NCBI RefSeq assembly: GCF_024700885.2
Contig: NZ_CP117016.1
Origin: Escherichia coli
GTDB taxonomy: Bacteria > Pseudomonadota > Gammaproteobacteria > Enterobacterales > Enterobacteriaceae
Length of the DNA stretch: 64,000 nucleotides
Direction: 5' to 3' (one strand)
The stretch's first letter is position 1. Each line of letters starts with the position of its first letter. The position numbers are program-made. This document shows, piece after piece, positions 17,401 through 57,041 of the stretch.

Positions 17401-20400
17401 CCGCCGGGGATACACAAAACACATGCTGCGTCTGCGGCGGGCCGGAGAGATAAACGGAGAACATGTCCCTGAAATTATTCTGCTCAACTCTCATGACGGT
17501 ACCTCCAGCTACCAGATGCTGCCGGGGTACTTCAGGTTCGTCTGCCAGAACGGCTGCGTCTGTGGTCAGTCTCTGGGGGAAGTACGTGTTCCGCACCGGG
17601 GAAATGTGGTGGACAGAGTCATTGAAGGGGCTTACGAGGTGGTGGGCGTGTTTGACCGGATAGAGGAGAAGCGTGATGCCATGCAGTCGCTGGTCCTGCC
17701 GCCACCGGCACGCCAGGCGCTGGCACAGGCGGCACTGACTTACCGTTATGGTGACGAACATCAGCCCGTCACCACCGCCGACATTCTGACGCCGCGACGC
17801 CGGGAGGATTACGGTAAGGACCTGTGGAGCGCATATCAGACCATCCAGGAGAATATGCTGAAAGGCGGGATTTCCGGTCGCAGTGCAAAAGGAAAACGTA
17901 TCCATACCCGGGCCATTCACAGCATTGATACCGACATTAAGCTCAATCGCGCATTGTGGGTGATGGCAGAAACGATGCTGGAGAGCCTGCGCTGATGCCG
18001 TTTCCCTGAGTGAGGGAATCATTCAGCTTTCGTTCCTGAAAAACACACATTTATTTGTTATTTAAGGAGTTATCTCATGAAAACCGTTTCTCAGAATACC
18101 CCCACAATTTATTCAGCTACAACACCAGAGAATAATCCGCCTCAGTTGGTTGCCAGCCTCGTCCCTGATGAACAGCGCATCAGCTTCTGGCCGCAGCATT
18201 TTGGCCTCATTCCACAGTGGGTGACCCTGGAGCCCCGTGTCTTCGGCTGGATGGACCGTCTGTGCGAAGACTACTGCGGTGGTATCTGGAATCTGTACAC
18301 CCTGAACAACGGCGGGGCATTTATGGCACCCGAACCGGATGACGATGATGACGAAACATGGGTACTGTTCAATGCCATGAACGGTAACCGCGCAGAAATG
18401 AGCCCGGAAGCCGCCGGTATTGCCGCCTGTCTGATGACGTACAGTCATCATGCCTGTCGTACGGAGAATTATGCCATGACGGTCCATTATTACCGGTTGC
18501 GGGATTACGCCCTGCAGCATCCGGAATGCAGCGCCATTATGCGCATCATCGACTGAATGGAGAGAAGCACAATGCAACAACTTTCCTTTCTGCCCGGAGA
18601 GATGACGCCCGGCGAGCGCAGCCTCATTCAACGGGCCCTGAAAACCCTGGACCGCCATCTTCATGAACCCGGCGTGGCCTTCACCTCCACCCGTGCGGCA
18701 CGGGAATGGCTGATTCTGAACATGGCGGGACTGGAGCGTGAAGAGTTCCGGGTGCTGTATCTGAATAACCAGAATCAGCTGATTGCCGGTGAAACCCTCT
18801 TCACCGGCACCATCAACCGCACGGAAGTCCATCCCCGGGAAGTGATTAAACGCGCCCTGTACCACAATGCCGCTGCCGTGGTACTGGCACACAATCACCC
18901 GTCCGGTGAAGTCACACCCAGTAAGGCAGACCGGCTTATCACCGAACGTCTGGTACAGGCACTGGGCCTGGTGGATATCCGGGTGCCGGACCATCTGATA
19001 GTCGGTGGCAACCAGGTTTTCTCCTTTGCCGAACATGGTCTGCTTTAACCCTTCACAACCACATCACACCTGTTTTCACTTTTATCTTCTGTCTTCAGAG
19101 GTATCCCATTATGAAAATTATCACCCGTGGTGAAGCCATGCGTATTCACCAACAACATCCGACATCCCGTCTTTTTCCGTTCTGTACCGGTAAATACCGC
19201 TGGCACGGCAGTGCTGAAGCGTATACCGGTCGTGAAGTGCAGGATATTCCCGGTGTGCTGGCCGTGTTTGCTGAACGCCGTAAGGACAGTTTTGGTCCGT
19301 ATGTCCGGCTGATGAGCGTCACCCTGAACTGAGTGGGAATTCTGATGAGCAGAATTATCGCCACTACCGGACCATTCTTAGCCGATTTTCTGTAAGGATT
19401 TTATCGTGTCAGACACACTCCCCGGGACAACACTTCCCGACGACAATCACGACCGCCCCTGGTGGGGGCTGCCCTGCACCGTGACGCCCTGTTTCGGGGC
19501 ACGTCTGGTGCAGGAGGGTAACCGGTTGCATTACCTTGCCGACCGCGCCGGTATCAGAGGCCTGTTCAGCGATGCAGATGCGTACCACCTGGACCAGGCC
19601 TTTCCGCTGCTGATGAAACAACTGGAACTCATGCTCACCAGCGGTGAACTGAATCCCCGCCATCAGCATACCGTCACGCTGTATGCAAAAGGGCTGACCT
19701 GCAAAGCCGATACCCTCAGCAGTTGTGGTTACGTTTATCTGGCTGTTTATCCGACGCCCGAAATGAAAAATTAACTCTCCAGAATAGCCTTCTGCTACGG
19801 CCTGGTGTTTTCACCACGCCACTTTTCCATTTTTATATCTGCATATCAGGAAAATCTTCAGTATGAAAACATTACCTGTATTACCCGGGCAGGCGGCCAG
19901 TTCTCGCCCGTCTCCTGTTGAAATCTGGCAGATACTGCTGTCCCGACTGCTGGACCAGCACTATGGCCTCACACTGAATGACACACCTTTTGCCGATGAA
20001 CGTGTGATTGAGCAGCATATTGAGGCAGGCATTTCACTGTGTGATGCGGTGAACTGATGCGCCGCGCGATAAATGCACTCTATCTTGTGCGATAAATGGC
20101 ATCCACGCGGCGTTTCATTATTTGAAAAAGAATTACATTTCAGGTTGCGTTATGACAGTCCCAACAGGGTGATAGCGGTAGATCGTTGACAGTCCAATAT
20201 CATAGATAATTGCCAGCCGCTTTCTGTCATACCCTTTCTGGAGCAATCTTGCGATCTGCTCATGCTGCTCCTTCGTCAGTTTCGGGCGACGTCCTCCAAC
20301 TCTTCCTTGTGCTCGCGCAGCAGCCAGTCCAGCCAGCGTGCGCTCAACTATCAGTTCACGCTCCATTTCTGCCAGTGCACCCATCATATGAAAAAAGAAC

Positions 20401-56400: not shown

Positions 56401-57041
56401 CCGGTTTACCGCTGGATAACCATCCGCAGTCCAGGAAAATTCGTGCGCTATGGCTTGAAATGGCTGCTGCCGGCATTGTTCGTGACCGTTCAGAAAATGC
56501 ATTAGCGAGGTGGATCAAGCGGGAAACGGGCATCAGCGCCCTGCGCTGGCTCAGTACTGAACAGGCAAGCAGTGTTATTGAGAAACTGAAGAAGTGGCAG
56601 CGCAGAGCTGCGGGAGTCAAACATGAGCGACCTGAATCAGTTTCGAAGTAAGGGGCCGGAACTCCTGGTGGAACTGGCACAGCATACCTCTGAGACCGTT
56701 CGCGAGATTATTGATATTGAGCCCGAAGTTGCCGACCAGATTGGTCAGGCCGTCGCGAACCGAATGATGCAGGTCTGGGGCGGGCAAAACGTTTATTTCC
56801 CGATGGGCATGGTATGGAAGGTCAGTCAGCGCGACCGGGAAATCTTCAGGGAGTTTAACGGACGCAACCACCACGAACTGGCCCGCAAATTTGGTGTTTC
56901 GCTTCAGTGGGTCTACAGCGTGGTTAAGCGGGTAAGAAAAGAAGAACTGGATCGGATGCAGGGCAAGCTATTTGCTGATGAACCCGATGCAGATACGGAG
57001 AAAAAAGAGTAATATCTGCAATCAGGCTGGCGCGAGTTCTG

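Follow-up and report, generated by a model that had tools for sequence, protein, structure and literature searches.

The stretch of DNA discussed here (the "window") comprises 64,000 nucleotides (nt) from an Escherichia coli genome (RefSeq assembly GCF_024700885.2, contig NZ_CP117016.1), and within it, inserted in the host gene cbtA, lies a transposable prophage of 37.1 kb. Its genes are arranged in two arms that are read away from one another: an early array of tightly packed open reading frames (ORFs) on the plus strand, which runs for 8.6 kb (48411-57012) towards the right-hand end and finishes with the gene for a Mor-type activator, and a late arm on the minus strand, which passes in order through genes for lysis, a Mu-like head, a P2-like tail and the fibre on its way to the left-hand end, where it meets the gene for a DNA invertase. 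Very probably this is an intact member of the BcepMu lineage of transposable, Mu-like myoviruses, and in its divergent map it keeps an arrangement ancestral to the lineage rather than a rearrangement of the map of Mu. The divergence itself had been pointed out in a first reading of the sequence (the original prediction), and every gene named there has been found on the strand given for it. Gene calls were taken from searches of PHROG, NCBIfam and Pfam, with the names assigned by the annotation pipeline PGAP used for comparison, and the coordinates are collected in Table 1.

The limits of the element can be read directly from the sequence. Its termini read TG and CA, a target-site duplication of 6 bp flanks it, and at each end there are two boxes of the form GMGATAWWT, at positions 12-20 and 35-43, in the same register as in BcepMu; these boxes are presumed to be the binding sites of the transposase. 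The two ends can also be told apart, in that the fibre-side (late) ends of the window element and of BcepMu share the signature GCGCGATA and their Mor-side (early) ends share the signature GTGAGATA, in each case with the same register and polarity. The empty site is represented by a short record, found by megablast, which joins window positions 20001-20055 to 57175-57457. Near-identical copies of this prophage are seen at three sites, with duplications GTGAAC (the cbtA site of the window), GAAGAA (strain 4/1-1, in the interval from aroA to ycaL, where the prophage is collinear with the window element from end to end) and CTCAGG (strain AVS0973, inside irp2); the third of these removes an ambiguity of one base and so establishes that the duplication is 6 bp long and that the ends are TG...CA. 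Of 5,426 complete E. coli genomes, just that of strain MLI114, whose chromosome (NZ_CP117013.1) the window matches, has the junction between prophage and host found in the window.

These observations bear directly on the suggestion that the two arms might really be two adjacent elements, namely a P2-like prophage (the late arm) lying beside an unrelated transposon or a remnant of early genes. Such a suggestion could draw on the P2-like nature of the tail, on the 99.7% identity of the invertase-fibre end to the end of a P88-like P2-type prophage, and on the variability of the block between the arms, but all 37.1 kb lie within one pair of TG...CA ends and one 6-bp duplication, and the same 37.1-kb unit occurs as a whole at three unrelated chromosomal sites. 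Moreover, PHROG searches of the element found neither an integrase nor P2-type replication genes, the head and terminase are of Mu type, and the sole late activator is encoded in the other arm. Two juxtaposed elements are thus highly improbable, and this explanation was rejected.

Several details affect how the map should be described. Between the end of the transposase gene and the nearest terminus there are 5.2 kb, close to the 5 kb or so that was first estimated, and the ATPase gene lies directly downstream of the transposase gene. The Mor gene ends 162 bp from the right terminus, and it is the one gene of the element that is matched when either Mor or C of Mu is used as a query. An array reading towards the terminus with Mor as its last gene had therefore been described correctly, and we infer that its ORFs form one transcript, as had been supposed. 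The repressor gene faces this array across a gap of 93 bp, at the coordinates and on the strand originally assigned to it; calling it central was less apt, however, as it lies at about 76% of the genome length and is better described as internal. The late genes do read towards the other end with the invertase adjacent, but the limits given for them have had to be changed at both extremities: the arm had been said to start at 45469, whereas the holin probably starts at 45436 (PGAP also calls this gene as 351 nt), and the invertase, which had been extended to 20834 (233 amino acids, aa), is the shorter gene listed in Table 1, lying 78 bp from the left terminus. The idea of a single late operon is probably too simple, there being at least two candidate Mor-type promoters (see below). 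Nor does a division into early and late cover everything: the two arms are there, but the interval 45567-47844 is neither early nor late, and holds accessory genes on the plus strand with orf134 on the minus strand.

Table 1 Features of the prophage and its insertion site, in window coordinates.
Feature	Position	Strand	Evidence or remarks
Left copy of target-site duplication, GTGAAC, in host cbtA	20049..20054		Read from sequence; empty site in other genomes
Whole transposable prophage, 37,120 bp	20055..57174	n/a	TG...CA termini read from sequence; PhiKM 99-99.5% identical
Late-side terminus	20055..20100	+	Two GCGATAAAT boxes (20066-20074, 20089-20097), 23 bp apart
Serine DNA invertase, Gin/Cin/Pin type, 190 aa	20133..20705	-	PHROG 125, E = 1e-95; PGAP "recombinase family protein"
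Invertible tail-fibre segment	20760..22827	.	229-nt inverted repeats; site alignment; PHROG tail-fibre matches
Tail-fibre assembly protein (Tfa), sole assembly gene	21684-22298	-	PHROG
Expressed tail fibre	22298-23971	-	PHROG
P2-like tail/baseplate (gpI, J, W, V, D, X, U, tape measure, chaperones, tube, sheath)	23968..34380	-	
Possible third Mor-type box, gpV-gpW gap	26015..26030	-	Sense strand TTTAAACGCCTTTAAT; tentative
Mu-like head/packaging module (connectors, capsid, protease/scaffold, G, F, portal, TerL, TerS)	34370..43075	-	
Capsid	35881-36834	-	
Protease/scaffold	36849-37964	-	
Candidate Mor-dependent late promoter box, upstream of protease	38023..38038	-	TCTAA-AGCAGA-TTAAA
Palindrome, G-I gap	38100..38125	-	CCTTTATAAAGG(C)TTTAC, with CCTTTATAAAGG at 38110-38123; conserved in E. 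coli, Klebsiella and Burkholderia lineage members
Lysis cassette	43386..45436	-	PHROG; gene order as BcepMu gp21-gp25
Lipoprotein or membrane protein	43386-43712	-	
Rz-like spanin	43709-44359	-	
SLT endolysin	44343-45083	-	
Holin	45086-45436	-	
Candidate Mor-dependent late promoter box, upstream of holin	45490..45505	-	CTTAA-CGCGCT-TTAAA
Accessory block between arms	45567..47844	mostly +	2.4 kb, variable
P-loop protein orf242	45567-46295	+	Weak Pfam P-loop matches only
orf134	46271-46675	-	
orf71 (71 aa)	46674-46889	+	
Dam methylase	46990-47844	+	
Intrinsic terminator-like hairpin downstream of repressor	47851..47875	-	11-bp stem, then T-rich tail
XRE/cI-type helix-turn-helix (HTH) protein, presumed repressor, 118 aa	47961..48317	-	PHROG repressor families; Pfam HTH_3 7e-15, Phage_CI_repr 2e-5
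Early promoter candidate	48335..48363	+	TTGATA-17-AATAAT; consensus scan
BcepMu-gp16-family HTH, first early gene	48411-48599	+	TIGR04111, 97.4 bits vs curated cut-off 34
Second regulator	48646-48960	+	PHROG
DUF3102 protein	48971-49891	+	
rve (Tn552/IS1604-like) DDE transposase	50224-51993	+	Pfam: rve alone; PHROG
ExeA-like transposition ATPase (AAA+)	52004-53170	+	PHROG 296 "DNA transposition protein"; PGAP "ExeA family protein"
Gam	53470-54000	+	PHROG
Small ORFs between Gam and GemA		+	
GemA	56202-56651	+	PHROG
Mor/C-type activator	56623-57012	+	PHROG
Early-side terminus	57130..57174	-	Inward from end: boxes GAGATAAAT (57155-57163), GAGATATTT (57132-57140)
Right copy of target-site duplication, GTGAAC	57175..57180		Read from sequence

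When the 55 window ORFs were compared by tblastn with BcepMu and with Mu, 35 were found to match BcepMu, in exactly mirrored collinear order, and 10 to match Mu. At the level of DNA, blastn aligned 29% of the element with BcepMu (NC_005882), at 68% identity and with every high-scoring segment pair on the opposite strand, as against 3% with Mu (NC_000929). Protein identities to BcepMu are 68% for the transposase (gp09; 581 aa, BcepMu 4725-6467), 59% for the ATPase (gp08), 54% for Mor and 76% for the sheath; taken by modules they come to 44-67% for the head (gp27-gp38), where the corresponding range for F, portal and TerL of Mu is 27-49%, and to 46-76% for the tail (gp39-gp51), whose gene order is kept. 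A likeness to BcepMu had originally been proposed tentatively, and the mirrored map, the opposite-strand matches, the matching termini and the published account of that phage (PMC2771037) all bear it out.

In the Mu record c, ner, A and B are at the left end and all lytic genes are read rightwards to gin and mom, a colinear map from which that of the window element does indeed differ, as had been claimed. One could nevertheless imagine that the element is a true Mu relative (Muvirus) in which the segment from c to mor has recently been inverted in place. There are real resemblances to which such an explanation might appeal, since identity to the Mu counterpart is 77% for the invertase (Gin) and 61% for Gam, and falls between 27 and 49% for F (47%), TerL (49%), portal, G, GemA (36%) and Mor (30%), but they are outweighed by what is missing or different. 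MuA, MuB, c, ner, lys, mom and com have no match in the element at E <= 0.01, no more than 3% of its DNA aligns, the tail is P2-like, and the transposase, which has the rve core only and is related to gp09 of BcepMu, finds no tblastn match in Mu. The target duplication is 6 bp, that of Mu being 5 bp, and the divergent layout is ancient and lineage-wide. The identities measured also run counter to any placing of the transposase and most core genes within the Mu/D108/SfMu clade. Very little credence can be given to a recently inverted Mu, which was rejected.

The extent to which the layout is shared emerges from a scan of IMG/VR with an alignment of the transposase, which yielded 526 relatives; the best 80 of these loci (66-100% transposase identity) were examined with the transposase set to the plus strand, and throughout these 80 the layout is invariant. 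The ATPase (79 of 79 loci), GemA (71 of 71) and Mor (70 of 70) are always downstream of the transposase on the plus strand, the gp16-type HTH gene is always upstream of it on that strand (50 of 50), and the repressor (49 of 49), holin (62 of 62), SLT endolysin (60 of 60) and TerL (59 of 59) are always on the minus strand. Many of the IMG/VR contigs stop 4-6 kb past the transposase, which matches the distance of about 5 kb to the end that was estimated earlier. Within E. coli, relatives are present in 642 of the 5,426 complete genomes, at differing insertion sites, and in 392 of these 642 the control region and transposase gene are at least 99% identical to those of the window; 433 complete genomes cover at least 80% of window positions 47800-52000.

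All this leaves virtually no likelihood that the divergent layout is an artefact of assembly, or a strain-specific inversion of the early block in a prophage with the colinear map of Mu. The same arrangement is seen in the phage records PhiKM and KP12_2 (of which more below), in strains 4/1-1 and AVS0973, in the 433 genomes and in all 80 of the IMG/VR relatives examined, and both termini bear the end-specific signatures that match the corresponding ends of BcepMu; nothing in these records was found to support such an artefact or inversion. In particular misassembly, against which the original prediction had asked to be checked, is excluded by independent records: PhiKM aligns unbroken over 45000-57174, the 433 genomes cover the control region, and the prophage of 4/1-1 is collinear. 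What does not stand is the implication that the layout is noteworthy, as it is the norm for the lineage and has already been published.

A different kind of doubt is whether the layout has any functional meaning, given that the element might be a defective, immobile remnant, and the labelling of the PhiKM and KP12_2 records as "partial" sequences could be cited in this sense. However, the core ORFs are all of full length and both ends are intact, there are clean duplications at three insertion sites with the window site occupied in one genome only, the fibre segment is found in both orientations, and relatives have been deposited in GenBank as phage genomes. A remnant is accordingly an unlikely description of the element; the prophage is complete, with exact ends, and probably active.

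Turning to the control region, the product of the repressor gene is presumed to be the lysogeny repressor on the basis of its domain, its position and an adjacent palindrome, and its position and strand relation match those of gp17 in BcepMu. The early promoter candidate is the best sigma-70-like promoter that a consensus scan detects in the region, and its spacer is occupied exactly by a perfect 18-bp palindrome, TGCTCATAATTATGAGCA (48341-48358), which is unique in the window and of which none would be expected by chance. This palindrome is presumed to be the operator; a half-site of it overlaps the start codon of the repressor gene, for which the same scan gave no convincing sigma-70 promoter.

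The block that separates holin from repressor, together with the repressor allele, forms a hot spot of accessory genes and immunity types. Other genes occupy the accessory position both in AVS0973 (29121-31751 of the locus L006) and in BcepMu, and among IMG/VR relatives whose transposases are near-identical the repressor alleles are anywhere from 26 to 100% identical, so that several immunity types must exist. Apart from the Dam methylase, a PADLOC search of the accessory genes found no defence system. It may be added that the block (P-loop protein, orf71, Dam and orf134) and the repressor allele are seen to be swapped for unrelated genes in prophages that are otherwise near-identical.

Some indication of how a single Mor might serve the late arm comes from short boxes of the pattern xxTAA-(G/C-rich hexamer)-TTAAA, which in the window element, KP12_2 and BcepMu are found 45-60 nt before the start codons of the holin and protease genes. 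Among distinct sequences from relatives the box is present upstream of the holin in 42 of 53 and upstream of the protease in 45 of 55, while the DNA further upstream is in both cases unrelated between relatives. In the Mu promoter Pm the Mor site is built from a pair of 5-bp inverted repeats with a G/C-rich hexamer between them and has its centre at -43.5 (PMC4390567), and the candidate boxes share this architecture; in the Mu sequence the site, just after mor, reads AGTAA-AGCCGG-TTAAT, and the box of BcepMu reads TAA-AGCCGA-TTAAA. The 5-6-5 boxes are for these reasons put forward as candidate Mor-dependent promoters. The possible third box, in the gap between gpV and gpW, is closer to the gpW ATG than a normal leader would allow. 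Within this gap (25981-26034, minus sense) a G/C-rich hairpin comes after the Mor-like box and reaches up to the start codon of gpW, and BcepMu has a similar sequence and arrangement in its own gpV-gpW gap (L002 30770-30822); the arrangement may act as a promoter, as a terminator or in the control of translation.

There are also terminator-like hairpins in the G-I gap, and these fit a scheme in which the late arm comprises at least two leftward units. The gap lies at 51% of the genome length in the window element and in BcepMu alike, and the corresponding gap in Mu contains the central strong gyrase site (PMC10052514; Mu record). Here it contains the palindrome CCTTTATAAAGG, which occurs once in the element, is duplicated in some relatives, and may belong to a terminator, bind a protein or be a gyrase-related site. 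It may be that the lineage combines a two-tier cascade, in which a single terminal Mor directly activates two or three late promoters having a Mu-Pm-like 5-6-5 box, with the use of CCTTTATAAAGG as a cis-acting site for transposition or replication, the counterpart of the strong gyrase site of Mu; this combined proposal is a speculative one that we think unlikely to be right in full. Were CCTTTATAAAGG such a site, inversion of the early arm in place would have been tolerated, since the site stays central. Within the literature available, no published description was found either of a 5-6-5 box cascade or of CCTTTATAAAGG, and the regulatory and cis-element predictions may be the only parts of this analysis that are new.

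There are also some points that weigh against the interpretation advanced here. The promoters, operators and transcript limits are predictions. The box pattern was derived from the same sequences in which it was then counted, which makes the enrichment statistics partly circular, and a search for the late-promoter box allowing one mismatch gave 5 matches where 3.9 were expected, no excess over chance; support that is free of this circularity is provided by the match to the published architecture of the Mor site and by conservation of the boxes beside unrelated upstream DNA. The repressor of the window element has no similarity to gp17 of BcepMu that tblastn can detect. Finally, nucleotide similarity to BcepMu is about 20%, and BcepMu is absent from the megablast matches. 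The ICTV guideline for a genus is about 70% or more nucleotide similarity genome-wide, and because the figure here is about 20% it is doubtful that the element belongs to the genus Bcepmuvirus in the strict sense, although its membership of the BcepMu lineage is secure.

At the fibre end, the invertible segment contains three cix/gix-like crossover sites rather than two. They were located by aligning the starts of the 229-nt repeats and are centred on TT, those at 20772/3 and 21211/2 being in direct orientation and that at 22814/5 inverted; a search with the Mu gix consensus, allowing up to 3 mismatches, found nothing. Two silent cassettes for the fibre C-terminus lie in tandem on the plus strand (20777-21205 and 21216-21677). 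There being a single assembly gene, inversion sets it antisense to the fibre gene, and the opposite inversion state seen in AVS0973 has just this form, with the assembly gene (L006 4413-5027) antisense to the fibre gene (5034-6998). The invertase-cassette end (window 20051-21739) matches one end of an E. coli prophage of the P88-like P2 type (H22) at 99.7% identity, which implies that the fibre module is a horizontally exchanged cassette; as the invertase is also close to Gin of Mu (77% identity), this host-range module is common to unrelated prophage lineages.

Two genes of the late arm contain repeats. In the fibre gene, positions 22977-23780 consist of four tandem repeats of 168 nt (56 aa), mutually 78-96% identical, and in strain 4/1-1 the number of fibre repeats differs and the fibre annotations are fragmented. 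The tape-measure gene (28866-31556) measures 2,691 nt here, as against 2,952 nt in strain 4/1-1. An internal repeat near 29467-29758 interrupts the alignment of the two, and tail length may accordingly vary between prophages that are otherwise 99% identical.

As to the host, cbtA encodes the toxin of the CbtA/CbeA type IV toxin-antitoxin pair and is split by the prophage into flanks at 19863-20054 and 57175-57370, which PGAP annotates as two pseudogene halves, so that the toxin gene has been knocked out. The surrounding island is of CP4-44 type, with an intact cbeA (the antitoxin gene) and a frameshifted agn43, and within it window positions 7000-9000 are of low G+C content (0.41) and show a strong AT skew.

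If the assignments made above are correct, the life cycle of the phage would be controlled as follows. During lysogeny the XRE-type repressor would sit on the 18-bp palindrome in the early promoter spacer and block rightward transcription. On derepression an early transcript of 8.6 kb, extending to the right end, would supply the gp16-type HTH protein (in the position of Ner), the transposase, the ATPase, Gam, GemA and finally Mor; the rve transposase and the ExeA-like ATPase would carry out replicative transposition, and Mor, bound to 5-6-5 boxes that stand in for a -35 element upstream of the genes for holin and protease, and perhaps between gpV and gpW as well, would switch on leftward late transcription of the genes for lysis, head and tail. 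A two-tier cascade of this sort, with the terminal Mor directly activating at least two leftward late units, seems the most likely scheme. Independently of it, the Gin-like invertase would flip the fibre segment, altering the fibre C-terminus and with it the host range.

As a discovery the divergent map matters little, since BcepMu-like phages have been known by this textbook arrangement from 2004-2009 onwards; the phage, too, can be found in GenBank (as PhiKM) and in E. coli genomes by the hundred, among them many of sequence type 131 (ST131). The more practical benefit is for annotation, in that this prophage should be labelled BcepMu-like and not, in the strict sense, Mu-like. BcepMu-like prophages of E. 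coli form a common but experimentally neglected group, and the candidate Mor boxes, the presumed operator palindrome, the central palindrome and the fibre cassettes that lack an assembly gene of their own offer starting points for studies of regulation.

Among known sequences the nearest is PhiKM (PQ738613), which megablast shows to be 99-99.5% identical over 22683-57174, making it essentially the same phage; NCBI files it under Bcepmuvirus, and a literature search for PhiKM found no paper on the phage. Its record, which is circularly permuted, includes a stretch (20200-20740), lying between fibre gene and Mor, that is annotated as an "Fe2+ ABC transporter permease" and is apparently not of phage origin. 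Klebsiella phage KP12 clone KP12_2 (OM835952) is 84-87% identical and has the same map (its record is filed under Vequintavirinae, despite the BcepMu-like genome), and Phi06_2974 B is about 85-87% identical. Prophages of the PhiKM, KP12_2 and ST131 types differ from the window element in insertion site (aroA-ycaL or irp2 rather than cbtA), in the alleles and orientation of the fibre and invertible segment, and in tape-measure length, and some RefSeq E. coli copies have a different immunity and accessory region. A preprint on ST131 isolates lists a Bcepmuvirus/phiE255-like prophage with a DNA invertase, and the model "BcepMu_gp16 family" of the NCBI pipeline is applied to the same gene in RefSeq genomes.

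With Mu the element has in common its TG...CA ends, an early array ending in GemA and Mor, a Mu-like terminase, portal, F and G, a central G-I gap, a Gin-type invertase beside the fibre genes at the late end, the architecture of the Mor-type operator and, in all likelihood, a transposable way of life. It differs from Mu in having its early block opposite to the late genes, a transposase other than MuA, one Mor/C gene where Mu has separate Mor (middle) and C (late) activators in a three-tier cascade, a P2-like tail and a 6-bp duplication. KS10 (from Burkholderia) is likewise transposable, with its early and lysis region inverted relative to Mu, but there the inverted block splits the head module, and TG...CA ends and target repeats are lacking (PMC2628397).

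The closest known systems are BcepMu, its close relative phiE255 and the BcepMu-like prophages. Published work describes BcepMu as having two gene clusters, the bottom strand carrying genes 1-13 and the top strand genes 17-52, with control of lysogeny (genes 16 and 17) at their interface followed by the lysis cassette, a P2-like tail, no system for tail-fibre inversion, and random host DNA at both ends of the virion DNA, in keeping with replicative transposition and headful packaging (Lavigne et al. 2009, PMC2771037); BcepMu-like prophages share the same functional clusters, with end repeats of 23 bp and with unique genes at either end (Ronning et al. 2010, PMC2920897), and TG...CA termini with imperfect repeated end sequences are characteristic of the type (PMC2628397, PMC2920897). 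The window element departs from BcepMu in its unrelated repressor allele, in the plus-strand genes for the P-loop protein and Dam that replace gp18-gp20, in a Mu-type Gam that BcepMu lacks, and in its Gin-like invertase and invertible, multi-cassette fibre segment, the corresponding end of BcepMu carrying an acyltransferase (PMC2771037). The BcepMu record presents the same map in mirror image: on one strand are gp01 (Mor) by the end, gp02 (GemA), gp08 (ATPase), gp09 (transposase) and gp16 (HTH), and on the other gp17 (repressor), holin, SLT, Rz/Rz1, TerS, TerL, portal, F, G, protease, capsid, P2-like tail and fibre. In both, the repressor is divergent, the early genes open with a gp16-family HTH protein and close with Mor beside the terminus, the head and terminase are Mu-like and precede a tail of P2 type, and one and the same box is found upstream of the genes for holin and protease.

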